From a bacterium (GTDB taxonomy: Bacteria > Sumerlaeota > Sumerlaeia > SLMS01): a stretch of DNA of 13,509 nt. The DNA lies in assembly GCA_030431385.1 (NCBI GenBank), contig JAUIJJ010000057.1, forward strand, positions 1 through 13,509, read 5' to 3'. This document shows positions 809 through 13,509 of the stretch, in pieces; position 1 is the stretch's first letter; every line of letters starts with the position of its first letter. The notes beneath the pieces are model-generated. The model searched no databases. It was not told where the DNA came from and saw only the letters and a list, made by a program, of their open reading frames with translations. The translations under genes were made by a program, and so were the position numbers.

Positions 809-2665
809 CTACCAGTTGTCGAGATCGTGGCGAGCATCGACCTCGTCGCGGAAGGTCGACGGATCGAGCCTCCAGCGCATGAGCATTCTGGAGAGGCTTT
901 CGAGAGTCGGGCGCTGTGCCTCGACCTGCGCGGTGAGACCGCAGTCGGCAAGCGCCACCGAGGTCGCCGCGCTGATCGATGCGATTCCCACATCTGTCAG
1001 CAATCGCTTGAAAGTCGTGTCGCCCCACGCCGCTCTGGCCACCTCGACGCTGGATGCCGAGAAGAAAGCGACGCAATCGACCTCACCCTTGGTCAGCGCC
1101 TGACGCAGTTCCAGAAGGTTCAGCTTCGATGGCTGCTTTTCGTAGAGCGGAACATGCGTGACGTTCGCGCCTCGAATATGCAGCTCCTTGCTAAGTTCCG
1201 GCCGCGCGTCCGTTGACCCCAAGATCAGCACCCGATCTCCATTCATCCGCGCTTCGAACGATTCCATCAAGTTATCGTTGGTGAACGGCTCGCGAACGAC
1301 TTGTGCGCGGATGCCGTGATCTCTCAGTTGCGAGCGGGTCATCTGGCCAACGGCGATGACGCTGCATTGTTCGGGGATGAGCCGCAGGTCCAGCTCTGCT
1401 TCCCGAAGTGCTTTGAGGAAGATCTCGACGGAAGTTTCCGTGGTAAAGACGATGTGAGTTGCGAGGCGCAGATCGTCGCTCATCGCGTCGAGCACCTGCG
1501 GCAGGCCTGCCACAGGGCGGGTTTGTTCGAGAGGAAACGGCAGCACCTGCGCGCCAAGCTCGCGGTAGAATTGGCTCGTCTCGGCGTTGCGGCTTTCCGC
1601 CCGCGTGACGGCCAGCTTCAAACTGAACAGCGGTCGGTTTTCGAAGAGGTTGAGGTGTTCCTGAAGATTGACCGCATCGCCCACGATCAGCGTGCAGGGC
1701 GACTTTAGGTTCTCACGCCCAATCTCACGTGCCAGCTTGTCCACTGTCGAGACGACGGTTCTCTGATGAGGAGTGGCACCCTGAGAGATCGCGACGACCG
1801 GCTCGTGAGGAGACCGCCCGCCCTGAAGCAGTCCGTCTCTGATAGCATTGAGGCACGGGAGTGGACGCGTGAACACGAGCGTATCTGCCGCAGTGCAGGT
1901 CGCTTTCCAGTTCATCACGACCACGTCTGCGGGTTCCTCGCCGGTAAGGGGAAAGCGCTCGATCGCCCCGCCCAACGGCACACTGGTTTCACTCGAACGC
2001 CAAGTATCGATGCGCCCCATTGAGGTCTCGGACTTCTTCTTGCCGTGGTCCAACGTAGTCTCGGATTCCGCACCCCGGATCTGAAAGGTCGCCGAGGACT
2101 CTTTTCGAGACTTGCGAGAGCGGCGAATGACGACCCCGGGGCGGCGCGGTTCTTCGTACTTTTGCTCGGGTTTCACCACAGGCTCCATCCGAAGCGACCG
2201 CGGCCGCTCGCAAGAAACGAGGCCCTCGATGATGAGGACCTTCCCTGCGATGCCAGGCTGGAGGATCGGAACTCCTGCCGCGGCGGAGGCGGCAACGGTT
2301 ACGGGTAATCCAGGGACGACATCAAACTCGATCCCCAAAGCGCGCAAGTGCATCATTTCTCCCGCGCTGAACGATGCCGTGATAGCGTCGCCTTGGCGGA
2401 GGCGCACGACGCTCAGGCCACGGCGGCCACGCTCGACGAGTACGTCCTTGATCTCATCCGGAGTTTGCGGCCCGAGCCCACCGGGAAGCCCGGTGGGTAA
2501 TAGCTCAGCATCGGTACGACAGAGACTCAGCAGTTCCTCGCCCAACTCGGCGTCATAGAGGACTACCTTTGCCTCTTCGAGAGCGCGTCGACCACGCACC
2601 GTCATCAGCCCCGGATCGCCCGGGCCTGCTCCAACGAAAGTGACTTTGCCAGTTCGCTTCTTCAT
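809..2665 (-). CDS. cobA-hemD: Bifunctional uroporphyrinogen-III C-methyltransferase (SUMT, CobA/CysG-type) / uroporphyrinogen-III synthase (HemD) fusion.
   Basis: ATG start preceded by GAGG. The N-terminus has the SUMT signature TFVGAGPGDPGLMTVRG, followed by VVLYD, then VVRLRQGDA...GIEFDVVPGLPVTVAASAAAGVPI and TLIVGDAV. The C-terminal half (SLKLAVTRAE...IVFTTETSVEIF...VLILGSTDARPELS...VAFFSASSVE) matches the HemD fold pattern. The SUMT domain carries an approximately 80-aa K/R/S/E-rich insertion. 618 aa, with a TAG stop at 809-811. Confidence 0.88.
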   Translation of the reverse strand: MKKRTGKVTFVGAGPGDPGLMTVRGRRALEEAKVVLYDAELGEELLSLCRTDAELLPTGLPGGLGPQTPDEIKDVLVERGRRGLSVVRLRQGDAITASFSAGEMMHLRALGIEFDVVPGLPVTVAASAAAGVPILQPGIAGKVLIIEGLVSCERPRSLRMEPVVKPEQKYEEPRRPGVVIRRSRKSRKESSATFQIRGAESETTLDHGKKKSETSMGRIDTWRSSETSVPLGGAIERFPLTGEEPADVVVMNWKATCTAADTLVFTRPLPCLNAIRDGLLQGGRSPHEPVVAISQGATPHQRTVVSTVDKLAREIGRENLKSPCTLIVGDAVNLQEHLNLFENRPLFSLKLAVTRAESRNAETSQFYRELGAQVLPFPLEQTRPVAGLPQVLDAMSDDLRLATHIVFTTETSVEIFLKALREAELDLRLIPEQCSVIAVGQMTRSQLRDHGIRAQVVREPFTNDNLMESFEARMNGDRVLILGSTDARPELSKELHIRGANVTHVPLYEKQPSKLNLLELRQALTKGEVDCVAFFSASSVEVARAAWGDTTFKRLLTDVGIASISAATSVALADCGLTAQVEAQRPTLESLSRMLMRWRLDPSTFRDEVDARHDLDNW

Positions 2666-2727
2666 TCCGCCTCAGAGTACTCTCGGAGTTCCCCGCGCGC
2701 CACAGGATTCTTCAGCCAGATCATTAG

Positions 2728-2758
2728 GGTTTGCTCCCCGCCGAATGGGTCGCAAACC
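2728..2758. promoter_or_regulatory. Inverted repeat GGTTTGC-N17-GCAAACC in the divergent cobA-hemD / tauE-like intergenic region; candidate operator.
   Basis: GGTTTGC at 2728-2734 and its exact reverse complement GCAAACC at 2752-2758, inside the 120-nt divergent promoter region (2666-2785). Confidence 0.25.
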
Positions 2759-2785
2759 ATAGCGCTCTTAGTTGAAACGGCTCCC

Positions 2786-3640
2786 ATGGAAATCACCTCG
2801 ACCATTCTCATCGAACTTATCGCCCTCGGGTTCGTGGTGGGGATTTTGGCAGGTACCTTCGGCGTTGGAGGCGGATTCCTGATCACCCCGCTCATCGGGT
2901 CTATGTTGGGCCTTCCCTACACGCTCGCGGTCGGCAGTTCGCTCGCATCCATTATCGGCACGAGCCTAACCGGCATCCACAAACACTGGCGTATGGGGAA
3001 CATTCACTTCGATCTGATCTCAGCGATCGGCGGTGGGACGGTCGCAGGGACCCTGTTCGGCACAGCCATCCACAAGTGGTTACGGGAATTCCTCGTCGCC
3101 GATGGCGACAGCACGACCTTCGAACTCACCATGATCGCGCTCTACGCAATTTGTCTGACGGTCATCGCCATCGTGTTCCTTTTTCAGGCGCGCGCGAAAA
3201 AGTCCGAGCCAGCGCCCGCAGAAGGCGACAGAAAATCCCCGCCCCCGCTTCCAAAATTTGATGCACGATTCGTCGTCACGATGACGGGCATCGGACTTTC
3301 AATCGGAACCCTGAGCGGGCTACTGGGGCTGGGCGGAGGCATCTTGATTATGCCCGCCCTCGTCATCTTGCTGAAGTTTGATCAGCGGCTGGCAGTCGCC
3401 ACGAGCCTCGGCGCAGTCTTCCTCAGTGCCGTCACTGGAACATGGGGATACGCAATCGGCGGATTCGTCAGCCTACCGATTGCGTTGTCCATTCTGGTCG
3501 GTGGAATCGCCGGAGTCCAGGTCGGCGGGGTCATCTGTCAGCGAATCAGCGGCCAGCGATTCCGCAGCGCGTTCCTTATCGTCATCGTTGCGGTCATCGC
3601 ACTGCTCGCGTGGAAAGCCACCAGAATCCTGACCGCCTAG
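2786..3640 (+). CDS. TauE/SafE (DUF81) family sulfite/sulfonate exporter-type membrane permease.
   Basis: 284 aa, strongly hydrophobic. Two internally duplicated halves each carry the glycine-rich signature (GVGGGFLITP... and GLGGGILIMPAL...), separated by a charged loop (RAKKSEPAPAEGDRKSPPPLPKFD). ATG at 2786 and TAG at 3638-3640. Confidence 0.85.
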   Translation: MEITSTILIELIALGFVVGILAGTFGVGGGFLITPLIGSMLGLPYTLAVGSSLASIIGTSLTGIHKHWRMGNIHFDLISAIGGGTVAGTLFGTAIHKWLREFLVADGDSTTFELTMIALYAICLTVIAIVFLFQARAKKSEPAPAEGDRKSPPPLPKFDARFVVTMTGIGLSIGTLSGLLGLGGGILIMPALVILLKFDQRLAVATSLGAVFLSAVTGTWGYAIGGFVSLPIALSILVGGIAGVQVGGVICQRISGQRFRSAFLIVIVAVIALLAWKATRILTA

Positions 3641-3643
3641 CCG

Positions 3644-4510
3644 CTATCGGCTCTCAACCTGACGCGCCAGAATCTTGATCGCTTCCTTCTCCGCACCGTT
3701 CAACCGGATGATCCGAGTGGAGCCCCAGTTATCCTGAAGCGGGTCGAAAAAGAAAATCCCTGCCACTGCGTCCCAGAATTGAAGGGGATGAAACTTAACG
3801 TTGAGAGCGACTACGCCCACGTTTGCCTGCACACCGACGGCCCAATAGTCCCTCGCTCGCTGAAAAACCCAGTCGCCGGGTCGCTTCAGGCCGGTGCCGG
3901 CGTGATTCAGTGCATAGCCACGGCTCATCGCGCTCCGCCAGGCAACCATACTGCGAATCTCAATAGGCAGTATGTCCAGGAACTCCTCCACGTTCGCGCT
4001 GACGCTCGGGTCGCCACGATAGAACCCAACCATGAACTCGCCACCAGATGCCTGAGCACCAACGGCAACAGCTTCGGTGACCTGTGCCTTCACTCCGGCG
4101 CCGAAACACACGCCGACCTCGGCCGTGAGCGAATCAAAGATGTCGAATAGAACATTAGCCGGCCACAGAATGACGCGCTTCGCGATTCCGACATCGTCAT
4201 TTGCGACTCGCATCGCATAGTTAGAACCTGCGGCTGTCCGAGCACCAAGTCGCCAGAGGTGGGGTGCCTCCAAAAGCGCGGTCTTGCGAATCTCTTTCGC
4301 ATCTTGGTCCCCCGGTTCCGCATCCAGCAGAAACAAGCTCAGGTAAAGCGCCTTGTCGTACTCTTTCGCGTTCAGGTGGTTGTGCGCTGAATCACGCAGA
4401 AACTCTCGAGTATCGTTGTAGCGACCGGGATCAAAGGTGGTGCATCCAACCAATGTGCCGAAACAGGCCAGCAAAACACCAAAACTCAAGACCAGACGAA
4501 CTGTCCGCAT
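3644..4510 (-). CDS. Hypothetical lipoprotein.
   Basis: The preferred ATG start at 4510 gives MRTVRLVLSFGVLLACFGTLVGC, an SPase II signal with lipobox LVGC. The ORF track instead starts at a TTG at 4519. The mature part is 260 aa with no recognisable motif. The stop at 3644-3646 lies 3 nt from the convergent tauE-like stop. Confidence 0.7.
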   Translation of the reverse strand: MRTVRLVLSFGVLLACFGTLVGCTTFDPGRYNDTREFLRDSAHNHLNAKEYDKALYLSLFLLDAEPGDQDAKEIRKTALLEAPHLWRLGARTAAGSNYAMRVANDDVGIAKRVILWPANVLFDIFDSLTAEVGVCFGAGVKAQVTEAVAVGAQASGGEFMVGFYRGDPSVSANVEEFLDILPIEIRSMVAWRSAMSRGYALNHAGTGLKRPGDWVFQRARDYWAVGVQANVGVVALNVKFHPLQFWDAVAGIFFFDPLQDNWGSTRIIRLNGAEKEAIKILARQVESR

Positions 4511-4521
4511 CAAATTCAAGA

Positions 4522-5073
4522 TTACTCGTCCTTTTCAGATGACTCATGAGCGTCGGGACGAAGAAGTTCCTCAATGGAGACCTCCGCCGTAGGCCCGTAA
4601 ATCGGCGTGCATCTCTCACCCATGATCCTCAGATACAGTTGCAACTGGGCGCGGTGGTGAATCCAATGACCGTGGTGCAACTCGATGATCTTCACACCCG
4701 GGAACAGACCAAAATCCAGAAGCTCAACGTCCGATGCAAGCTGGGTGACGGAGAGATTGCGCAGTCCCTCGAAAAACTCCGAGAAGAACGCATCGCATTG
4801 TTGAACCAATCCATCCGTATCGCCAGGTATCTCGAACTCAGGAGGCTCCGCTGTGATGCTTTCATCCCCCTGCAACAATTTCAGAAACCAGGTCCCGGCA
4901 AAGTAGAGGTGAAGCGCCATTTCGGCGAATGGCATCGAGAGCTCATGCGGCTTCCATCCAAGCTTATCCGCAGGACACGAGGCGATCACGGACACGGTCA
5001 GTTCGTGCTCGGAGGGGAACTCGTGCAGCCATCGGCTGCGCTGTTCATGAGCATATAGTTGTGATACTGGCAT
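4522..5073 (-). CDS. DinB_2/YfiT-like metal-dependent enzyme (DinB superfamily).
   Basis: The C-terminal motif ELHHGHWIHHRAQLQLYL matches the DinB-superfamily HxxHHRxQ metal-binding signature. Size (about 183 aa from ATG 5073) is typical of the family. The ORF-track start at 5121 is a TTG with no SD, so the ATG at 5073 (MPVSQLYAHE...) is preferred. The TAA stop at 4522-4524 lies 11 nt upstream of the lipoprotein ATG. Confidence 0.6.
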   Translation of the reverse strand: MPVSQLYAHEQRSRWLHEFPSEHELTVSVIASCPADKLGWKPHELSMPFAEMALHLYFAGTWFLKLLQGDESITAEPPEFEIPGDTDGLVQQCDAFFSEFFEGLRNLSVTQLASDVELLDFGLFPGVKIIELHHGHWIHHRAQLQLYLRIMGERCTPIYGPTAEVSIEELLRPDAHESSEKDE

Positions 5074-5138
5074 AGCCAACTCGCGTCGAGAATTGTCTGA
5101 AGAGAAGTACCCGACACACAACAGAGGCTAGCAAAAAG

Positions 5139-8100
5139 TCAGGAACCCGATTGGTACTGTTCCAGCAGCGACTTAGCCTCGGCGCAACCGTGATCCAGTG
5201 AGCGGAGAATAGTCCCCAACTCATTCTTGGTCAGGCTCGAACCCTCGCGGCTTTCAATGACCATCAACACGTTCTCGCCGCTCTGGCTTCGATCAATTCC
5301 AATGCTCACCGGCAAGATCTTCGTGTTTAAATCAAGAAGCTCCTCATAGAACTTGCCGTTTAGCTCGTGATTCACATTTCCCACCCGCGCCTGAACGTAG
5401 AATCGGTCCTCGAGGATTCGGAAGTAGGTCGGAGTCTTGTTCTCTCGGTTGATTCTAAACAGCGTGCGCTCGACTTCTTCGACTGCATACCCCATCGATT
5501 CCAGAAAACGTCGCATGGAACCGGCGGCGTGAAACTCGCCTTCCTTCGGCGACCAATCAACCTCGACTTCCGGCTGTGTCTCGGACTGCGAAGGCGGGCC
5601 AGTCGCTACACGATGCTCACCGCCAGCGACCTTCAAATCGCCGAAGATTTCCTTGAGAGCCTCGATCGCTTCGAGAGTGAAGTGCGCGGAGACGGGGCGT
5701 GCCATCGTGCCCTCGGACACGGCGTGAGAAGGGGCCGCCAATTTGTCGCGAATCTCCGCCAGCACGATCTTCAGTTGATCAATCGTTTCCGGTGCAAACT
5801 CCGCCCGTATCGCGGTCGAAGCATCCTGTCGAGATTCCGTGATCGCCCTTGCGAGTTCACTAAATGACTCGCGCAGGTGAACCAGCGTTTCTGGTTCGAA
5901 TACCGCCTTAACATCTCGCGATGAGTCGTCAGAAGAACCACCCACCAGACCGCGCAGCCCGCTGCCGATGTCCTCGCGCAACCTCGTGATTCCATCACCG
6001 AGATCGCCCAGCATCGTCACGGCCTGAGTCATTGAATCACTCGAATCCATCCCTCTGAATTTCTGATTTCGACAGAATGTATCCTTAATGTCCTTCCACC
6101 GCGCAAGTTCCTCCTCGGTTGCGAAATCAAACATCTCGCGGAACTTGAGCATGTTCGCCTCTGCACCGGTGGTGAGCGTCTGCGATTCGCCCTCATAGTG
6201 AGCAAGAATCATCGAGCGCAATTCCTCATCATTCATGATGGGAAGTACCTTCTCCGCCAACTTGTTCATGTTACGATAGGATCCCTGCAACTTGAACGGA
6301 GGCTCGGTACGATAATCATCCGCCTGCGCGGCAGATGCGATGTACTCGGCGTTGACGCGCAAGATAACATCCCGAACAACGAGCATCTTCTTAAGCACAG
6401 AAACGATCTCGTTTAGCTCCTCTGTCGAGTAGTTTCCTTCGAGTTCAATTCCCTCCCGGTCGCCAGAATTCGCCAATCTGAGGATCGAATAGATGTCCTT
6501 GCTGGCCCGACTCGCGACGCGAGCCAACACGGCATTCGAGGTCAACGAGTTCTCGATATAGCTCATTTCGAAGGCCTCGGATTGATCCCCAATGATGTCG
6601 CCGAGATTGTACGTATCTGCGCGGTTTGCCAACATATCGGGGATCTGGAACTTCTCGCCGCTTTCGGTGTACGGATTGCCCGCCATCACAACACAGACCT
6701 TCTTACCGCGCAGGTCATAGGTGCGCGTGCGGCCGCGCCAGACACCCTCGATCTTCCGTTGAGCGTCACACAATGAAATGAACTTCTGTAGGAACTCGGG
6801 ATTACAGTGCTGAATGTCGTCCAGGTAAATCATCACATTGTCGCCCATCTCGAGCGACAGATTGAGTTTCTCTAATTCCTCTTTGGCCGTTGCGTTTGGA
6901 GCTTCCGAAGGATCGAGTGACGTGACCCGATGACCAATCGCGGGGCCGTTAATCTTCATAAACACAATGCCGAGGCGATTCGCGACATATTCCATCAAGG
7001 TCGTCTTGCCGTAGCCCGGCGGCGACACGAGGAGGAGCATACCCATGCGATCGGTACGTTTGTCCGCGCCCGCTGCGCCCATCTGCTTGGCGAGGTTATC
7101 GCCAAGCATCGGGAGGTAAACCTCGTCGATCAATTTGTTGCGAACAAAGGAAGTCAGGATGCGGGGCTTGAACTCATCCAAGCGCAGATTGTCGCGATAC
7201 TCCTCAGCCGCGTCCTTCTTGGCCAGAACATAACTTTCGAACAGCGGAACTGATTCGTTTGTAAAGCGATAGAGCCTTTCCATATACTCGGGATAGTTAA
7301 GCCGGTAAACACCATCAACGATCAGGTCATGACTTCCAGTCATCGCTTCGATATCTCGGACAACGGTAACGTTCAGCACATGAGAAGGATCAAACGAATC
7401 CGCGAAGAACATCGCCGCGACCTCGTCGGCATATTGGCGCAGCTCTGATTCTTCAGAGTTCTCAATGTATCCATTCACCCAGGTTCGGATAAGGTCAAAC
7501 CGGCCGACATCGTCGTCCGCCATTTCATCGAGAATCCCGCGTAGCTCAAGATAGCTCTTTGATTCATCGAGGTACTTGCGAATGCCCTGAAGCAACTGCG
7601 CCGATTCAGGACTCGTCACAATCCGCACGCTTCCAGTTAACTCGTGAAACAGATATTCGGCGGCTTCGGGAATGAGATCTTCATCGAAGAGTTCTGTCTC
7701 GATAATGAACGCCCTGAGAGAATCGCCTAAATCTTCGATATGATCAGCAAAATCGGTGCGATGCGGAACGACGCGCAACGCCGCGCCGAGCCCTCTTAAC
7801 CGCGCAGAAAGCCGCTTCTTCGTCGCAGAATCGGCGAAGGTTTCCCACCAGCAACGAGCGCAGGCTCGCGCGATGGAGCGGTACCTCAACAAGTCGACAG
7901 TCTGATTGAGATCAATGAGAGCTGACACAATACGCGCCGCGTCGTGATCATGAACGCCCTTCACATACCCTTCGCTAAAACGCGGCCCCATGAACTTTTG
8001 GACCTCTGCCGAAACTTCTTCAACCGTCGCGGTGCTGAGCTCAGATATAGACCGAATTCTACCAGCCTCGACCTCTGTCATGAACAAGTATGCTAGATAC

Positions 8101-10844
8101 TCAGCGCGATACACGTCCGCATTCTCTGATACGTACTCCTGATTCCAAACGGACTTCGTAGAAAGGAGCTTCTCATCAGTCGCTTTCTCAAAGAAGTTCG
8201 TGCCGGTAATGTGAAATGTGAGCTCACCATTTCGCATGACAGATGTTAAATCCAGCGGCTGTGTGTTTACATTGAAACGATGCTTTCCGAACTTGATAAT
8301 GTTCTCGCCATCGACGAAAAGGTCCTGGCGGTCTCTCAGTTGGCGAACCGCGTCTTCTTTGATAGACTTGAGCTTACTCCCGATCTCGTCGGCCTTAACG
8401 CTATCGCCCATTTCAATGAGCTGTTCAACGATTCCTCGCACCTTTTCAATCATCAGATCAGATGCGAAGTATCCGTTAATGTCCGAGACCGCCTTCAGAT
8501 TCCGCGCACGGTTGTCGATCCCCTTGAGAATTCGATCCGCTGCGCTGTGAAGCGCAACCGCCCGCTTGTTGCGCGCCTCTATGAGTGCGAGCTTTTTGGA
8601 TTCGAACGCGTTCGCTGCCTCTTCACGCTTCTCCGCCAACTGGATGATGAAGGCGTCGAAATCGGTGAACCGCCCCTCAAGTTCTTCAATCTGAACCAGC
8701 AATTTGTTCAGGTACTCATCGCACTTTTCAGGCGTGTCACAAATGTCCAAATAGTTGATGACACCCTGATTAAGGAGCTTCATTTGCGATCCGAACTCGG
8801 CCACAGCTTCGGTCCCCTGAAGGTCCTTCTTCCTCCGCGCCAGTTTAGAACGCACCTGATTCACAACGGTGAAGATCGAGGAGATGTTATCAATGATCTG
8901 GGTTGTCTTGGTCGAGTCATCAATCTTTAGGTTACTGACGATCTCAATTAGAAGTTCCAGCTCTGACGAAACCTTGGCGACGGATTCTTCCAAATCCTTC
9001 GCTTCGGTGACTTTATCCAATTCTGCAATTCTGGAATCCAGCTGATGGACCTTCGATTGGTAAACATCGAGCGCATCGGGCCGCAGGAGAAACTCGACGC
9101 AGCCTTTCGAGAGTTCCGAAGACTGCTCGGAAACTCTCTTTTCGAGCGCGTCGATCTCCTCACCATTCGCATAACGCAAATCGCGAAGTGAGATGATCTC
9201 GCCACGCAGCTTACGCAACTCCGCGAGGGACTCCACGTAGTGATCGACAGACTCGAAAGTGCGCCGCGCGTTCTGCCCGACAAGCGAATCCGTTTGCAGG
9301 GAAACCTCGCGGACGCGTTCTAAAGTTTGCTTCCGAATCCGACTGACCTTCTCGAATTCTTCAATCGCAGCGCCGGCGGTTTCTCTAATCTCACCAAGGG
9401 TTTTCTTGAGGTTCCCCGTCCTCTCCTCCCCTACCCAGAAGTAGGAATCCATGACATCTTGGGTCTGCCGCACGATATCGATGTAAAGCCCCTCGTATGG
9501 GTCAGGTCGGTGGATGAGCCTTAGAACTTCGTGACACTCGGCCATCGCCTTTACGATGTCTTTGTTTCCGATCTTGTATAGATAGGATTCGGTCGAGGCT
9601 GCGGGAACGTGGTTAGGGCCGACGTAGGGTGTTTGCCAAACTTGGACGGTATGATGCTTTTGCGGCTCCGGATCGGCCGTGAAGTAGACCAACTCTCCAT
9701 CATCAAAGAAGGAATAACCACCGCAAATGATAGGTGTCTCAACCCGCTTCTCGATGAGGTTATAGCTCAGAATAATGTATGTACCATTCTCCCGATTGTA
9801 GAAAACATACAAGTAGTCCTCGCCATTCGAGGACTGCATTCGACGTTCGAAGAGCATCTCGCACAGCCCGTGCTCGAACTGTTTGTACTCGCCAGAGACT
9901 AGATAGTACCCGCTGCTGAAGATCAGACCGTGCGAATCGGGAAGCAGCACACACGAGTCCTCGATGTCGTCAATCCGCCTGGCAGTTTTCGTCTTTTCAT
10001 TATATACTATATACCGAAACTCGTCTTCCTGATAGGGTCGTATCTTGAGGAGAATGATCGGGCCGATAATTGCATAGTAGACTTCTGCATCGTCGAGAAT
10101 CTGATCGGGGTTTTCGACCGCTTCCTCGTAAATCCCCGCGCCGGTATCGGTATTGTCCTCAACCTTGATTGTCAAGTCACCGCCCACCGTCTCTACAAAC
10201 AGCCGGTCGTCGATGGAGATATGCGGGTGCGCGCCGGCGCGGTGCATGTCTCGATGCGTGCGCTTCCATCTAAACTCATGCTGCTCGGGATATCGGTATT
10301 CGTGGTCGCTTCGGTTGTCCAAATAGTGCAGCTCGTCGCCTTCGATTGCCCACTTGAAGGTCTTCACATCGCTGACGCGCTTCCCCACTCGAAACACCAT
10401 GTAGAGATGCGGACCAGTAGAAAAGAACTTCGCAAACTGAGTCTCTTTGTAGTACTTGTAGAGGTTCGCAAAGTCCTCCTCGAAGCTACCATTAGAAATC
10501 AGCTTCAACGTATCCGGGTGAAACTTATTGTTCTCATCAAATGTATAGACAGCAAACACGTCTGAGATTTCGACGGTTGACTTGAGGCCAAACCTGACAT
10601 TGTACCCAAACAAGAATCTGCGTCCGACAGGTATCATGTCCCTGGCGACGCAGTTATTCTCCGTAGTGATTCGGTCGCTATCGATGAGCTTGAACTCGAT
10701 AGACCCAAAGACGGACTTCCGCTCCTCATTCAGTTTGTTCACACGCGCCAACAGCTCCTCGCCGTGCGTGTTGAGCCGGCCGCGGATTATCTCATAAGTC
10801 CCGCCCTCAAGAACCTGATCCTGCTTTTGTTGTTCCTCAGCCAT
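5139..10844 (-). CDS. Giant (1901 aa) multidomain protein with one AAA_5 (MoxR/dynein-related) ATPase module, a long coiled-coil region and a C-terminal YbjN/secretion-chaperone-like domain. Family unknown.
   Basis: Uninterrupted 5.7-kb ORF. ATG at 10844 is preceded by GAAGGG; TGA stop at 5139-5141. Walker A is LLLVSPPGYGKTTL (nt about 6999-7019). Walker B is VMIYLDDIQHCNPEFLQKFISLCDAQ (about 6810-6836). Sensor-1 is CVVMAGNPYTE and an Arg finger sits in IPDMLANRADTY; together these are the hallmark AAA_5 pattern (hhhhDE ... atmNP ... R). Residues about 480-860 are heptad-like and E/K/R/L-rich (coiled coil). Residues about 1-470 are rich in Y/F/W beta-strand-like segments. Residues about 1770-1900 resemble the YbjN fold. 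Confidence 0.85.
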   Translation of the reverse strand: MAEEQQKQDQVLEGGTYEIIRGRLNTHGEELLARVNKLNEERKSVFGSIEFKLIDSDRITTENNCVARDMIPVGRRFLFGYNVRFGLKSTVEISDVFAVYTFDENNKFHPDTLKLISNGSFEEDFANLYKYYKETQFAKFFSTGPHLYMVFRVGKRVSDVKTFKWAIEGDELHYLDNRSDHEYRYPEQHEFRWKRTHRDMHRAGAHPHISIDDRLFVETVGGDLTIKVEDNTDTGAGIYEEAVENPDQILDDAEVYYAIIGPIILLKIRPYQEDEFRYIVYNEKTKTARRIDDIEDSCVLLPDSHGLIFSSGYYLVSGEYKQFEHGLCEMLFERRMQSSNGEDYLYVFYNRENGTYIILSYNLIEKRVETPIICGGYSFFDDGELVYFTADPEPQKHHTVQVWQTPYVGPNHVPAASTESYLYKIGNKDIVKAMAECHEVLRLIHRPDPYEGLYIDIVRQTQDVMDSYFWVGEERTGNLKKTLGEIRETAGAAIEEFEKVSRIRKQTLERVREVSLQTDSLVGQNARRTFESVDHYVESLAELRKLRGEIISLRDLRYANGEEIDALEKRVSEQSSELSKGCVEFLLRPDALDVYQSKVHQLDSRIAELDKVTEAKDLEESVAKVSSELELLIEIVSNLKIDDSTKTTQIIDNISSIFTVVNQVRSKLARRKKDLQGTEAVAEFGSQMKLLNQGVINYLDICDTPEKCDEYLNKLLVQIEELEGRFTDFDAFIIQLAEKREEAANAFESKKLALIEARNKRAVALHSAADRILKGIDNRARNLKAVSDINGYFASDLMIEKVRGIVEQLIEMGDSVKADEIGSKLKSIKEDAVRQLRDRQDLFVDGENIIKFGKHRFNVNTQPLDLTSVMRNGELTFHITGTNFFEKATDEKLLSTKSVWNQEYVSENADVYRAEYLAYLFMTEVEAGRIRSISELSTATVEEVSAEVQKFMGPRFSEGYVKGVHDHDAARIVSALIDLNQTVDLLRYRSIARACARCWWETFADSATKKRLSARLRGLGAALRVVPHRTDFADHIEDLGDSLRAFIIETELFDEDLIPEAAEYLFHELTGSVRIVTSPESAQLLQGIRKYLDESKSYLELRGILDEMADDDVGRFDLIRTWVNGYIENSEESELRQYADEVAAMFFADSFDPSHVLNVTVVRDIEAMTGSHDLIVDGVYRLNYPEYMERLYRFTNESVPLFESYVLAKKDAAEEYRDNLRLDEFKPRILTSFVRNKLIDEVYLPMLGDNLAKQMGAAGADKRTDRMGMLLLVSPPGYGKTTLMEYVANRLGIVFMKINGPAIGHRVTSLDPSEAPNATAKEELEKLNLSLEMGDNVMIYLDDIQHCNPEFLQKFISLCDAQRKIEGVWRGRTRTYDLRGKKVCVVMAGNPYTESGEKFQIPDMLANRADTYNLGDIIGDQSEAFEMSYIENSLTSNAVLARVASRASKDIYSILRLANSGDREGIELEGNYSTEELNEIVSVLKKMLVVRDVILRVNAEYIASAAQADDYRTEPPFKLQGSYRNMNKLAEKVLPIMNDEELRSMILAHYEGESQTLTTGAEANMLKFREMFDFATEEELARWKDIKDTFCRNQKFRGMDSSDSMTQAVTMLGDLGDGITRLREDIGSGLRGLVGGSSDDSSRDVKAVFEPETLVHLRESFSELARAITESRQDASTAIRAEFAPETIDQLKIVLAEIRDKLAAPSHAVSEGTMARPVSAHFTLEAIEALKEIFGDLKVAGGEHRVATGPPSQSETQPEVEVDWSPKEGEFHAAGSMRRFLESMGYAVEEVERTLFRINRENKTPTYFRILEDRFYVQARVGNVNHELNGKFYEELLDLNTKILPVSIGIDRSQSGENVLMVIESREGSSLTKNELGTILRSLDHGCAEAKSLLEQYQSGS
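6585..7067 (-). other. AAA_5 ATPase module of the giant protein (residues about 1260-1420).
   Basis: Walker A GYGKTT, Walker B YLDD, AGNP sensor and Arg, read directly from the translation. The reverse complement of 6999-7040 encodes MLLLVSPPGYGKTT. Confidence 0.8.
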
Positions 10845-10895
10845 CGACTACGCGCCCTTCAAGAATTGGGGAGTGTATTGTAACTGGAGTGAACA

Positions 10896-10926
10896 GGAGA
10901 GAGGAGCATCGCGCGCTCCCCTCCCC
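10896..10926 (-). other. Stable hairpin without a U-tract between the flotillin stop and the giant-ATPase start. Candidate partial terminator or RNA processing/stability element.
   Basis: On the minus-strand RNA: 5' GGGAGGGGAGC / GCGCGAU loop / GCUCCUCUCUCC, an 11-bp stem that includes 2 G-U pairs. The same positions give A-C mismatches on the plus-strand RNA, so the fold is strand-specific. It lies 17 nt downstream of the flotillin TAG (10943-10945) and about 50 nt upstream of the ATG at 10844. No U-run follows it. Confidence 0.45.
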
Positions 10927-10942
10927 CATTCGTCAGGAGCTT

Positions 10943-13018
10943 CTATTTGTCTTCGATGAACGATGAAGCCGGTGCGCCGCCGAACCCGGCAGACTTCACG
11001 GCTTCCAGTATCGACTGGAGTTTGCCCTGTTGTTCCGGGCTGCTGCTTTGCGACATCAACTGCATGATCAGCGCGGTGACCGACAAATTCTTGATATCCT
11101 CGCTGCTGACTCCGAATTGATCCACCAGCTTCGCGATCTCTTCTTTGAAGTTTCCAGGCTCACCGTTGAAAAAGGTCTCCTTCACATCGCGCAGCACTGC
11201 CGAGTTATCGACCAATCGGTCTACTGACTTACCGTTTGCAATCGCACCCACGAGGCGGTCGAAGAACTTCTGATCGCCACCGACAATGTCGATCTTCGCA
11301 TTCATCAGGCCCTCGCGAATGACGCTTGCCTGAGCCTCCGCGATGTCACGCTGTACATTGATCTGCGCGAGTTGCACGTCCCGATGGATGTTCATGCGGA
11401 TTTTGTATTCTTCGTGTTCCTTGCCAACGCCATCGAGCTTCTTCATGGCCTCGGCCTTTTCTTCGATGCCCTGTGCTTCGGCGCTCATCTTCTTGTGAAG
11501 TACGTCTGCATCAACCTCGCCCTGCTTCTGCGCGGCGTCCGCGTTCGCGACTTTGCCCTTCGCCTCGGCTGATGCTTTGAGCTCGATGACCTTTGCTTCG
11601 GCGGCACCTTCCTTCTCGACTGCCGACGCGCGCGCCTCGAGTACACGAACTTCCGATAGACCATGAATGGCTTCTTCTTCGGCTCGCGCTTCGGCGATGG
11701 TCTTCATCGCGACGGCGCGTTTCTCGGCAGCCAGCTGCTCGGCCTGGGCTTCGATCTGGACCTGTTCCGCAGTATGTCCGGCTGCAGTCTTCCTGGCTTC
11801 GGCGCCCTTCACTTCCATGACCAACTTTTCTTCAGCTTCCTTTTCCGCGTTAGTGATCGCGACCAACTTCTCACGATCAGCGCCAGCTCTCGCGCGTGTA
11901 TCCTTAATGCGCTCCTCTTCTTCGACCACTTCTCGCTCTACAGCGACACGTTCGCGGATGACGGTCTGAATGTTCTTGCGCTCTTCTTCGACTGCTTTGT
12001 CGCGTTCGATCTGTGCGAGTGAAACGATCTTCTCGCGTTCGGTCACTTCCAACTGACGGTCGCGTTCGATCCGTTCAGTCTCGATGGCGTCGGTACGTTC
12101 TTTAGCTTTAGTTGCGACGATGATCTGGCGATCCTTGTTTTCATTGGCGACGCTGATCTCTTCGTCAGCAATGATCCGAGCCTGTTCCCACTTCTGCCGC
12201 TCTTCGTGCTGAATCTTGGCAGCTTCGGCCTGTTCGCGTGCGGTGACTGATGCGATCTCGCGCTTCTGCTTCTCTTCCTTCTCGGCGAGCTGTCGGTCGA
12301 GTTCAAGAATCGCCTCGCGCGCCTCGACGTCCTGCTGGCGAATCGTCTTCTCTTTATCACGTTCGATCTTGTTAGATAACACTCGCTGCGCGGCAGTCAG
12401 ATCGGTGATCTTTTTGATACCTTCAGCATCGAGGATATTGTTCGGATTCAAGGTCTCGATCGGCGTTTGTTCGAGGTAGTCAATCGCCGCATCGTCGAGC
12501 ACGTAACCATTCAGATCGGTACCGATAATCTGTAGAATCTCGTGCTTGAATTGCTCGCGTTCAGTATATAGTTTTGTAAACTCAAAACCCTTACCGACAG
12601 TCTTCAGCGCCTCGGAGAATTTGGCGTCAAAGAAGTCGACGAGCGCCTGCGGACTCGATGCGCGTTTACAACCAATGCACTGCGCGACTTTGAGCACGTC
12701 TTGCTCAGTCTTGTTTACGCGAACGAAGAAGGCCACCTTGATGTCTCCGCGAATGTTGTCCTCGCAGATCAGGCCATCTTTCCCCGATCGCTCGATCTCG
12801 ACCCTCTTGACGCTGATGTCCATCAGCTCCAGACGGTGGAAGATCGGTATAACAAAGAACGACGTAAAGCTGACGACCGTTCCCCCGCGCCCTGTTCGAA
12901 TGAGCGCCTGGCCTTGCTCTGCCTTGACCAGAAACTTCGTAAAGAGCGCCAACGCGCCCACGACAAAGATCAGGCCAACTACCAAAATTCCGATGATAAT
13001 GATGCCCGTTTGTGGCAT
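10943..13018 (-). CDS. Flotillin-family SPFH/band-7 protein (YqiK/FloT-like), 691 aa.
   Basis: N-terminal TM helix (IIIIGILVVGLIFVVGALALF), then an SPFH domain, then an approximately 290-aa E/A/K/R-rich coiled coil (EERQKWEQARIIADEE..., AEKEAEEKLVMEVKGAEARK...) and a C-terminal flotillin domain. ATG at 13018 is preceded by GAGGAAG 7 nt upstream. It lies 11 nt downstream of the nfeD-like stop, indicating translational coupling. Confidence 0.9.
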   Translation of the reverse strand: MPQTGIIIIGILVVGLIFVVGALALFTKFLVKAEQGQALIRTGRGGTVVSFTSFFVIPIFHRLELMDISVKRVEIERSGKDGLICEDNIRGDIKVAFFVRVNKTEQDVLKVAQCIGCKRASSPQALVDFFDAKFSEALKTVGKGFEFTKLYTEREQFKHEILQIIGTDLNGYVLDDAAIDYLEQTPIETLNPNNILDAEGIKKITDLTAAQRVLSNKIERDKEKTIRQQDVEAREAILELDRQLAEKEEKQKREIASVTAREQAEAAKIQHEERQKWEQARIIADEEISVANENKDRQIIVATKAKERTDAIETERIERDRQLEVTEREKIVSLAQIERDKAVEEERKNIQTVIRERVAVEREVVEEEERIKDTRARAGADREKLVAITNAEKEAEEKLVMEVKGAEARKTAAGHTAEQVQIEAQAEQLAAEKRAVAMKTIAEARAEEEAIHGLSEVRVLEARASAVEKEGAAEAKVIELKASAEAKGKVANADAAQKQGEVDADVLHKKMSAEAQGIEEKAEAMKKLDGVGKEHEEYKIRMNIHRDVQLAQINVQRDIAEAQASVIREGLMNAKIDIVGGDQKFFDRLVGAIANGKSVDRLVDNSAVLRDVKETFFNGEPGNFKEEIAKLVDQFGVSSEDIKNLSVTALIMQLMSQSSSPEQQGKLQSILEAVKSAGFGGAPASSFIEDK

Positions 13019-13029
13019 GGCTCTTCCTC

Positions 13030-13509
13030 TCAGTTTATTGTTTCAACGAGGTAGATTTCTTTCTCCTCGTCGTAGTGGACAATCACAACTTCCTCACCCT
13101 TGGGGAGGGCGATTCCCTCCCGACAGCGTACGGTCAGCAGCAGCGACGCACCCTTTGTCGTCATCTCCGCCTGACCGTGGCGGTCGCTCGATGCCGGTGT
13201 CAGCAATGTACACGTCCTGCCGATGACCTGCATCGCCTCGCGCTCTTCTGCCTGAGCCTTTGCGATGACCTTGGCAAACGGGGCCGTCGCGCCCTTCGTA
13301 ATCAAGATCGAAATGATCCAGTTGATCAGGAACAGAATCGCCGCGCGGATTCCGGAGAACTCAGGATTCAAATGCAGTGTTGTAAGCATCGTGAGTGACC
13401 ACATACTGATCACAAACAAACTAATGATGATGGTGAGCGGAACGTATTGCGCGTTGAGGAAAATCAGCCCCGTGCCCACGATCCCGTAGGGGCTCGCGTG
13501 AACCGCCTG
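13030..13509 (-). CDS. NfeD/YqiJ-like membrane protein with C-terminal OB-fold. Classic partner of SPFH proteins. 5'-truncated by the window edge.
   Basis: TM segments (LTIIISLFVISMWSLTMLTTL, AAILFLINWIISILI) are followed by the soluble beta-rich C-terminal segment GASLLLTVRCREGIALPKGEEVVIVHYDEEKEIYLVE, typical of NfeD OB domains. The ORF-track start at 13479 is a GTG, and the frame stays open to nt 13509 (QAVHASPYGIV...), so the real start is probably upstream of the window. TGA stop at 13030-13032. Confidence 0.8.
   Translation of the reverse strand, partial: QAVHASPYGIVGTGLIFLNAQYVPLTIIISLFVISMWSLTMLTTLHLNPEFSGIRAAILFLINWIISILITKGATAPFAKVIAKAQAEEREAMQVIGRTCTLLTPASSDRHGQAEMTTKGASLLLTVRCREGIALPKGEEVVIVHYDEEKEIYLVETIN

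Follow-up and report, generated by a model that had tools for sequence, protein, structure and literature searches.

A flotillin-NfeD-DUF3686 AAA+ module from an uncultured bacterial lineage, with a candidate remodelling ATPase and a putative CesT/Tir-like fusion

Operons that encode a YqiJ/YuaF protein, a band-7/flotillin protein and an AAA+ ATPase were described by Ravi et al. (mSystems 2024; bioRxiv 2020; PMC11237479). There, the ATPase is presented as a novel AAA+ protein with a β-propeller and a coiled coil, often accompanied by CesT/Tir-PspA and sometimes by PLD, and abbreviated operons, reduced to flotillin, YqiJ/YuaF protein and ATPase, are reported to be widespread. The same work proposes sub-membrane assembly and dynamics with PspA. 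Here, we analyzed a locus of this kind in a 13,509-nucleotide (nt) stretch of bacterial DNA (contig JAUIJJ010000057.1; hereafter “the window”, i.e., the whole stretch), where genes for an NfeD-like membrane protein, a flotillin and a giant AAA+ ATPase of 1901 amino acids (aa) follow one another on the minus strand (Table 1). An earlier note on this DNA, made from the sequence alone, had proposed that the NfeD-flotillin pair has in the ATPase a dedicated partner, encoded in the same orientation, and that the arrangement had not been described. The partnership is borne out (66 of 71, 7 of 7 and 3 of 3 loci, see below), while the novelty is not: the class appears in Ravi et al. (PMC11237479) and, in Pseudomonas aeruginosa, as bacABCDEF (PMC10948618). 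With a propeller/coiled-coil/AAA+ ATPase, a same-strand upstream flotillin of ~690 aa and an NfeD protein of YqiJ/YuaF type, the window is a further member of a known, poorly understood flotillin-NfeD-DUF3686 AAA+ module, not an undescribed system. As far as its contig extends, it corresponds to the abbreviated operon without PspA of Ravi et al.; every operon variant given there is reproduced among the related loci analyzed below, and equivalence with their Dokdonia donghaensis example (ANH61663.1) rests on same-order Flavobacteriales and Cytophagales loci.

The P. aeruginosa member of the family (P0243, which represents a cluster of 3,222 sequences) lies in a locus that reads DUF2170, PspA, a 213-aa protein, a 688-aa protein, DUF3686-AAA, PLDc_2, YaeQ, RecJ and LasB. 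This is the bacABCDEF “biofilm-associated cluster” (PA3732-PA3727 / PA14_16140-16200; PMC10948618, and Macé et al. 2008 as cited there), and its ATPase, BacE (PA3728), is 42% identical to the window ATPase over 1629 aa. The Bac system shares its core order with the window, i.e., NfeD/YqiJ-like BacC, the 688-aa flotillin BacD, and BacE with DUF3686, DUF7902 and AAA domains, and both have a structured spacer between the flotillin and ATPase genes. They differ in what surrounds this core: in P. aeruginosa, bacA (DUF2170, CesT/Tir-like) and bacB (PspA) precede it as separate genes and a PLD gene, bacF, follows it, whereas the window has no PLD gene, carries a CesT/Tir-like domain putatively fused to the ATPase, and has its upstream region beyond the contig end. 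Published work on the bac operon proposes a σ54 promoter, finds BacB-F 6- to 13-fold higher when bacA is mutated, and describes both the bacA mutant and an earlier pa3731 (bacB) mutant as defective in biofilm, rhamnolipid, swarming and virulence; BacE is treated only as a hypothetical protein (PMC10948618). PA3728 (positions 8001-13241 of the P. aeruginosa locus analyzed here, L088) also figures in a review table where, under the label “ATPase”, it is given as mutated in three independent studies that followed adaptation to the cystic-fibrosis lung (PMC8190622). A 2026 survey of P. aeruginosa SPFH proteins makes no mention of the ATPase.

Next, we evaluated how widely this gene order is kept. 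In a scan limited to one genome per species, the ATPase had 569 relatives, of which the best 80, at 53–59% identity, were kept as related loci; these come from Planctomycetota, Bacteroidota, Verrucomicrobiota, Calditrichia, Desulfobacterales and Cloacimonetes. Among the 71 loci having at least 1 kb upstream of the ATPase, 66 carry a same-strand homologue of the window flotillin directly upstream, so that the neighbourhood enrichment that the earlier note had put forward as a check came out strongly positive. One of the five exceptions, a Cloacimonetes metagenome-assembled genome (MAG), does have the flotillin partner, on another contig and unlinked. When the open reading frames (ORFs) of the 80 loci were clustered, the flotillin and the NfeD-like protein formed the sole widely recurring neighbour families, the latter found upstream of the flotillin in 54 of the 80. 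The order was also kept in all seven further loci reached from ATPase sequences (two Sumerlaeia, four distant, one P. aeruginosa), and flotillin-seeded look-ups led to a DUF3686-AAA gene immediately downstream in three cases out of three. Homologues at ~40% identity retain it on the Pseudomonas plasmid pQBR103, a Streptomyces plasmid, a Deinococcus megaplasmid and the Proteus mirabilis chromosome. In the two closest relatives (L082 and L083, both Sumerlaeia), the flotillin-ATPase pair is flanked by unrelated genes on the opposite strand, and one of the two has the NfeD-like gene. Given that genomes hold few flotillin genes, a chance neighbour within 10 kb should be rare; the association of flotillin and ATPase is real and old, far beyond chance.

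Beyond this core, accessory genes vary between lineages. Hymenobacter/Pontibacter loci read CesT_Tir_1 (E 8e-53), PspA (E 9e-35), NfeD, flotillin and ATPase; Planctomycete loci have PLDc_2 upstream, and Pontiella has three PspA genes upstream. On pQBR103, a megaplasmid of P. fluorescens SBW25 (L084 1-12196), the module ends a long same-strand gene array comprising PspA, rhomboid, DUF2491, DUF350, DUF1190 and glutathionylspermidine-synthase-like genes, which ties it to the PspA operons of the polyamine-linked type in Ravi et al. Neither the window nor its closest relatives carry a PLD gene.

Some of these features would also suit an anti-phage or conflict system, in which an SPFH scaffold and a large nucleoside triphosphatase sense infection and a PLD-family nuclease or phospholipase acts as effector: copies sit on large plasmids (pQBR103, a Streptomyces linear plasmid, a Deinococcus megaplasmid), PLDc_2 is attached in Planctomycetes and P. 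aeruginosa, and in some Bacteroidota selfish elements (a DUF559 endonuclease, an IS200 transposase) lie between flotillin and ATPase. We hold this to be distinctly improbable. PADLOC returned just mad8 for the ATPase, at the P-loop (E 0.0082, 13.7 bits), and the other four proteins gave no match. For such a system the degree of conservation is unusual, with 53–59% identity among the 80 closest loci, 83–87% in the AAA core, and ~40% to proteins from Proteobacteria, Actinobacteria and Deinococcus; the 3,222 sequences of the P. aeruginosa cluster suggest that the gene is present in most sequenced isolates. The would-be PLD effector is absent from the window and its closest relatives, and the mutant phenotypes concern biofilm, rhamnolipid and virulence (PMC10948618).

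The giant ATPase has >5,700 homologues, one of which, at 58% identity (P0050), comes from a eukaryotic protein set (eukprot g33011.t1) and may reflect contamination or horizontal transfer. The earlier note had seen in it a single AAA_5 module, and the single module is found as described: near aa 1258-1400, Pfam matches PF00004 (29.2 bits) and AAA_5 (26.8 bits, E 1.4e-6), the PF00004 and Cdc48 matches being mainly confined to the Walker A region. Beyond that call, three further domains could be detected, namely DUF3686 (aa 30-469, E 1.4e-189), DUF7902 (aa 590-673, E 3.7e-26) and CesT_Tir_1, to which we return below. Hydropathy gave no hydrophobic segment and Pfam no peptidase domain, and the protein is predicted to be soluble. 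Searched against the Protein Data Bank (PDB), a full-length family profile matched Walker A regions alone, hence there is no solved relative.

Two segments were modelled. For aa 1-480, the AlphaFold 2 model (predicted local distance difference test, pLDDT, 70; predicted template modelling score 0.70) has a helix at 13-46 and is all-beta afterwards, and its leading Foldseek matches in the PDB are nearly all beta-propellers (Sec12, the DCAF1 WD40 domain, CyRPA) with E values of ~1e-6 and low TM-scores. In the model of aa 1215-1640 (pLDDT 75.5), the fold is of AAA+ type and a beta-hairpin precedes the sensor-1 strand. Across 76 aligned homologues, Walker A (SPPGYGKTT), Walker B (IYLDDIQH), sensor 1 (AGN) and the ANRAD motif holding the Arg finger are each present in >90%, so the protein is probably competent as an ATPase, and blocks of the AAA region remain 83–87% identical to the window protein across phyla. 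The position of the pore loop, NGPAIGHRVTSLDP, is conserved as well.

Together, the AAA_5 profile match and the MoxR-like fold with its pre-sensor-1 hairpin place the module in the AAA_5 / MoxR-dynein clade, i.e., the modelled fold is MoxR/dynein-like and not that of the classical AAA clade. The classical clade (Cdc48, Vps4, FtsH) was rejected on the absence of its pore-loop motif and the presence of the hairpin in the model. Proteins of the MoxR family (NorQ, CbbQ, RavA; Pfam AAA_5), compared here along with midasin and dynein, are ~300 aa long and have VWA-domain partners; the window module is instead embedded in a 1901-aa propeller/coiled-coil protein. MoxR proper was rejected on this length and because no VWA gene occurs in the window or among the conserved neighbours. 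A looser analogy is offered by Vps4 and ESCRT-III, in that the ATPase is genetically coupled, in some lineages, to the ESCRT-III-superfamily protein PspA at the membrane, and an ATPase-borne adaptor domain could stand in for the MIT domain of Vps4. Unlike Vps4, the window ATPase is predicted to lie outside the classical AAA clade and lacks the pore-loop motif, and PspA is absent from most loci.

The earlier note had likened the locus to HflK/C-FtsH. The likeness stands as far as an SPFH scaffold coupled to an AAA+ machine at the inner membrane is concerned; it does not extend to a protease domain, a classical fold or a canonical pore loop. FtsH is a membrane-anchored AAA+ protease of the classical clade, whereas the window ATPase appears soluble, without a protease domain and MoxR/dynein-like, and an SPFH-protease system of the HflK/C-FtsH type was rejected for want of a peptidase domain and a hydrophobic segment on the ATPase. 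A variant of the idea would make the ATPase an unfoldase for membrane-protein quality control, organised by a flotillin cage in the manner of HflK/C-FtsH and working with a protease encoded elsewhere. It can draw on the SPFH cage around an AAA+ protease that is established for HflK/C-FtsH (PMC13220708), on a Walker A region nearest in sequence to that of Cdc48/VCP, and on a CesT/Tir-like domain that could bind unfolded segments. We nonetheless regard it as unlikely: the ATPase has no protease domain and no conserved protease neighbour, the aromatic-hydrophobic-Gly pore loop is absent, and flotillin and ATPase would both be on the cytoplasmic side, the latter without a membrane segment. In addition, the modelled fold is closest to MoxR-type remodellers, which are not known as threading unfoldases.

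NCBI and Pfam names for this protein (“DNA repair ATPase”, “ATPase involved in DNA repair”) suggest a very different role, i.e., a DNA repair enzyme whose adjacency to a flotillin has no functional meaning, with DinB_2 in the window and recJ in P. aeruginosa as parts of a DNA-damage theme. Weak RuvB_N/RuvB matches at the Walker A region, RuvB among the top Foldseek matches, the DinB_2 gene downstream of the ATPase in the window, and YaeQ and RecJ downstream of bacF all point that way. We give this reading hardly any credence, since no DNA-binding, DNA-processing or nuclease domain was detected in the ATPase, its conserved partners are membrane proteins, and DinB-like genes occur in just 2 of the 80 related loci, at varying distance and on varying strands. 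Literature searches found no paper linking DUF3686/PF12458 to DNA repair and none that brings a “DNA repair ATPase” together with flotillin; the name, which comes from the Pfam description of DUF3686, looks like a propagated mis-annotation. The same counts bear on another proposal of the earlier note, namely that the DinB_2 and lipoprotein genes may belong to the same transcription unit as the ATPase. This was not upheld: the lipoprotein recurs in none of the 80 loci and DinB-like genes in the two already mentioned, and the closest relatives have opposite-strand genes after the ATPase.

The flotillin was identified through E. coli YqiK, to which it is 30% identical over 465 aa (BLASTP, E 1e-47), the alignment covering the anchor, the SPFH region and the coiled coil. 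This pairwise comparison settled its identity because searches with family models gave nothing: no Pfam, NCBIfam or PDB sequence match was obtained, with Band_7/Flot absent from the Pfam results even at E up to 10, the NCBIfam FloT model not significant (E 0.43), and a profile of 20 flotillin homologues matching only QmcA in the PDB, at E 0.32. Homologues at 55–77% identity carry the names flotillin or YqiK in their sources. The protein consists of an N-terminal membrane anchor (aa 1-34, by hydropathy), the SPFH region, a long Ala/Glu/Lys-rich coiled coil and a conserved C-terminal region; its last 130 aa are without similarity to YqiK, and it belongs to a distinct subfamily of ~690 aa. Over positions 11000-12500, the plus strand shows a strongly negative AT skew that goes down to -0.40, and the coiled-coil region is overlain by long antisense ORFs; both are a composition effect of the Ala/Glu/Lys-rich flotillin coding strand. 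In three related loci, a simple longest-ORF caller chose the antisense frame over the flotillin gene.

An NfeD-type protein closely followed by a flotillin is also the arrangement of E. coli yqiJK and B. subtilis yuaF-floT, although E. coli, unlike the window, has no ATPase gene after yqiK. The earlier note had reported an 11-nt spacer with a strong Shine-Dalgarno sequence between the two genes, and the spacer (GAGGAAGAGCC) does contain GAGGA. One correction concerns the nfeD-like gene, which is present and incomplete. As listed, its ORF covers 13030-13479 (149 aa), with the frame open to the last base, 13509. When the protein is aligned with E. coli YqiJ and 19 homologues 203-235 aa long, ~55-65 N-terminal codons prove to be absent, corresponding to the first helix and an acidic DxD-rich segment. 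The open frame and the absent N-terminus together indicate that the gene is cut by the contig end. By hydropathy, the remaining part has two hydrophobic helices; a putative C-terminal NfeD-type domain follows. The Pfam NfeD match (PF01957, aa 84-135) is weak, at E 0.068 and 13.8 bits against a cut-off of 29.1, and the pairwise comparison with YqiJ gives E 0.071, with the family alignment spanning the full length of YqiJ. Of the assignments for the three proteins, that of NfeD is thus the weakest, and this putative identity draws on the weak Pfam match, the YqiJ-family alignment and the conserved position.

Between flotillin and ATPase lies a 98-nt spacer in which the earlier note had seen a hairpin without a U-tract and no obvious promoter, the ATPase gene following in the same orientation; all of this was found to be so. 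The whole spacer folds at -36.1 kcal/mol (z -2.3), its best 60-nt window reaches z -4.2 against shuffles, and no U-tract follows the stem. A scan of the spacer gave no sigma-70-like or terminator-like site, and in the region at large promoter-like and terminator-like counts are not above those of shuffles. Structured spacers recur: in 34 of 52 (51 related loci and the window's own), the 60-nt window has z < -2 against its own dinucleotide shuffles, with a median z of -3.05. They stand directly after the flotillin stop codon and their sequences are unrelated between loci. The bacD-bacE spacer of P. aeruginosa (L088 7852-8000) is structured too (z -2.5), and transcription reads through it. Genes inserted in this spacer were observed in Bacteroidota and in one Verrucomicrobiales MAG, in modules otherwise intact; they encode a DUF559 endonuclease, a DMP19-like protein and an IS200-type Y1 transposase (L074 9403-9897; L012 8609-9238; L060 6190-6672; also L007-L009, L027, L062 and L075).

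Such a hairpin could be a terminator, with the flotillin pair and the ATPase as separate, merely adjacent transcription units and the ATPase under its own promoter. The stability of the hairpin within 98 nt speaks for this, as do the spacers of relatives, which are often 100-300 nt long (median 175 nt) and in some cases have partial T-runs after the stem. The possibility is nevertheless very slight, given the missing U-tract, the absence of a promoter-like match in the window spacer, and an order and strand conserved across phyla. Moreover, in P. aeruginosa, reverse-transcription PCR (RT-PCR) yielded products across every junction of the bac operon, including bacE-bacF and the equally structured bacD-bacE, and BacD and BacE rise together in the bacA mutant (PMC10948618). 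We mapped the published bacD/bacE primers on L088: the forward primer falls at 7665-7684, in the 3' end of the flotillin gene, and the reverse primer at 8202-8221, about codon 70 of the ATPase, for an amplicon of 557 bp, equal to the size listed (PMC10948618). The reverse primer as printed has no match at up to 3 mismatches; it holds one extra A, and the corrected 20-mer maps. The co-transcription check suggested in the earlier note therefore has a positive answer on the P. aeruginosa homologue. The bacE/bacF primers (L088 13105-13124 and 13261-13280) span the ATPase-PLD junction with 176 bp, against 501 bp listed. The stem-loop is probably an intra-operon attenuator or a stabiliser of the mRNA end that would set the ratio of flotillin to ATPase.

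The C-terminal 125 residues of the ATPase give a Pfam match to CesT_Tir_1 (E 2.9e-6, 27.7 bits, cut-off 27). Four relatives that align along the entire query share this putative CesT-like C-terminus (P0002, P0010, P0019 and P0074, two of them named Sumerlaeia), and CesT_Tir_1 is the top Pfam match for three of these four tails (E 1e-4 to 1e-3). In the other 75 aligned homologues, the tail is unrelated or missing: a helical motif stands there in Planctomycetes and almost nothing in Bacteroidota. Likewise, tblastn and phmmer found no counterpart of the domain in the 80 genome loci, and a profile of it gave no significant match in the PDB. In Bacteroidota, CesT_Tir_1 is a separate gene beside pspA in the operon, and comparison of the window C-terminus with these stand-alone genes (hhalign) gave E 0.0034 over 104 columns at a probability of 9.5%. 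Overall, support for a CesT/Tir fusion is moderate, and the domain remains putative. A CesT-like domain that is fused to the ATPase here and encoded by a separate gene elsewhere (BacA or CesT_Tir_1) suggests an adaptor that works directly on or with the ATPase.

Taken together, on balance we favour the view that the locus is a conserved flotillin-associated membrane-scaffold module, i.e., the PspA class of Ravi et al. and bacC-bacD-bacE, with the ATPase as its remodeller. The flotillin, held by its N-terminal hydrophobic segment, would build an oligomeric SPFH scaffold at the cytoplasmic side of the membrane, and the multi-pass NfeD/YqiJ-like protein would be its membrane partner. To this platform, the soluble ATPase, built of a helix, a beta-propeller, ~750 aa of helical/coiled-coil sequence and one MoxR/dynein-type AAA+ module, would be recruited by physical interaction, and it would spend ATP on remodelling, building up or taking apart a protein assembly associated with the membrane, a role proposed by analogy with MoxR-type remodellers. 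PspA, the bacterial ESCRT-III, and/or the flotillin lattice itself would be the likeliest clients, the CesT/Tir-like domain may be the client adaptor, and the module as a whole would serve an envelope-stress or membrane-maintenance response. The three genes would form one transcription unit, in which the stem-loop probably lowers expression of the ATPase relative to the flotillin or stabilises the upstream mRNA, and does not terminate transcription.

Several observations weigh against this remodelling module. The Walker B motif is DD, not DE, an Asp replacing the usual catalytic Glu, and in the 76-homologue alignment the pore-loop-1 position (GHRVTSLDP) lacks an aromatic-hydrophobic-Gly motif. 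The two together make a threading unfoldase of the Vps4/Cdc48 type unlikely, and the ATPase activity may be slow or regulatory. There is no pspA nearby in most loci, the closest relatives L082 and L083 included, so PspA is not an obligatory cis-encoded client. The structure models are only moderately confident (pLDDT 70-75), and the CesT_Tir_1 assignment is marginal in both bit score and hhalign probability. Since the window stops inside nfeD, it includes neither the promoter nor any pspA or cesT genes that may precede nfeD. Finally, binding of the ATPase to flotillin, NfeD, PspA or a CesT-like protein is putative, as is ATP hydrolysis.

A bolder extension, which we put forward tentatively and consider rather doubtful, reads the CesT fusion as a “Rosetta stone”: a BacA-type chaperone would act directly with the ATPase, and the ATPase would be the energy source of PspA/ESCRT-III or flotillin scaffolds, recruited by its adaptor and with its dosage set by the stem-loop. 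The available text of Ravi et al. (PMC11237479) and of the Bac work (PMC10948618) makes no mention of the C-terminal CesT/Tir fusion or of the stem-loop.

The rest of the window adds little to the module. None of the neighbours at 809-5121, i.e., the HEM4 fusion, the exporter, the lipoprotein and DinB_2 (Table 1), is kept beside the ATPase in relatives. The spacer between ATPase and DinB_2 measures 17 nt from a TTG start or 65 nt from an ATG start, and that between DinB_2 and the lipoprotein gene 11 nt, measured to ATG. Rfam and tRNA scans found nothing.

Table 1 Features of the NfeD-flotillin-ATPase locus and its neighbours in the window
Feature	Position	Strand	Basis or remark
NfeD/YqiJ/YuaF-like membrane protein gene	13030-13509	-	5' end cut by contig end
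nfeD-flotillin spacer, 11 nt	13019-13029	-	Shine-Dalgarno-like GAGGA, read directly
Flotillin (YqiK-type SPFH protein), 691 aa	10943-13018	-	YqiK similarity
Flotillin-ATPase spacer, 98 nt	10845-10942	-	
Stem-loop in flotillin-ATPase spacer, 18 bp, G+C-rich, without U-tract	10891-10931	-	fold
Giant AAA+ ATPase, 1901 aa, BacE / “DNA repair ATPase” family	5139-10844	-	Pfam, homologues
DUF3686 (aa 30-469), long N-terminal helix then beta-propeller (predicted)	9438-10757	-	Pfam, model
DUF7902 (aa 590-673), inside helical/coiled-coil middle (~aa 470-1250)	8826-9077	-	Pfam
Single AAA+ module (aa ~1258-1400)	6645-7073	-	
Putative CesT/Tir-like (YbjN-type) chaperone domain, ATPase C-terminus (aa 1776-1897)	5154-5519	-	Pfam
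DinB_2 gene, 199 aa	4522-5121	-	
Lipoprotein-like gene, 291 aa	3644-4519	-	lipobox LVGC; no detectable family
TauE/SafE-type exporter gene	2786-3640	+	
Fused uroporphyrinogen-III methyltransferase/synthase gene	809-2665	-	TP_methylase + HEM4

The window contributes a new member of this module from an uncultured lineage, with Sumerlaeia as its closest named relatives. To our knowledge, no dedicated ATPase that remodels flotillins or PspA/ESCRT-III has been established in bacteria. The family analyzed here, with thousands of members at 40–60% identity across phyla and PA3728/BacE in P. aeruginosa, is a strong candidate for such a flotillin/PspA remodeller. What the window adds is a putative CesT/Tir-like fusion variant, a recurrent intercistronic stem-loop and a predicted AAA fold of MoxR/dynein type. 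A locus from an uncultured lineage, the comparative-genomics class of Ravi et al. and the experimentally tractable bac operon are now connected, and, if true, the CesT fusion would argue for a BacA-type chaperone acting directly with the ATPase.

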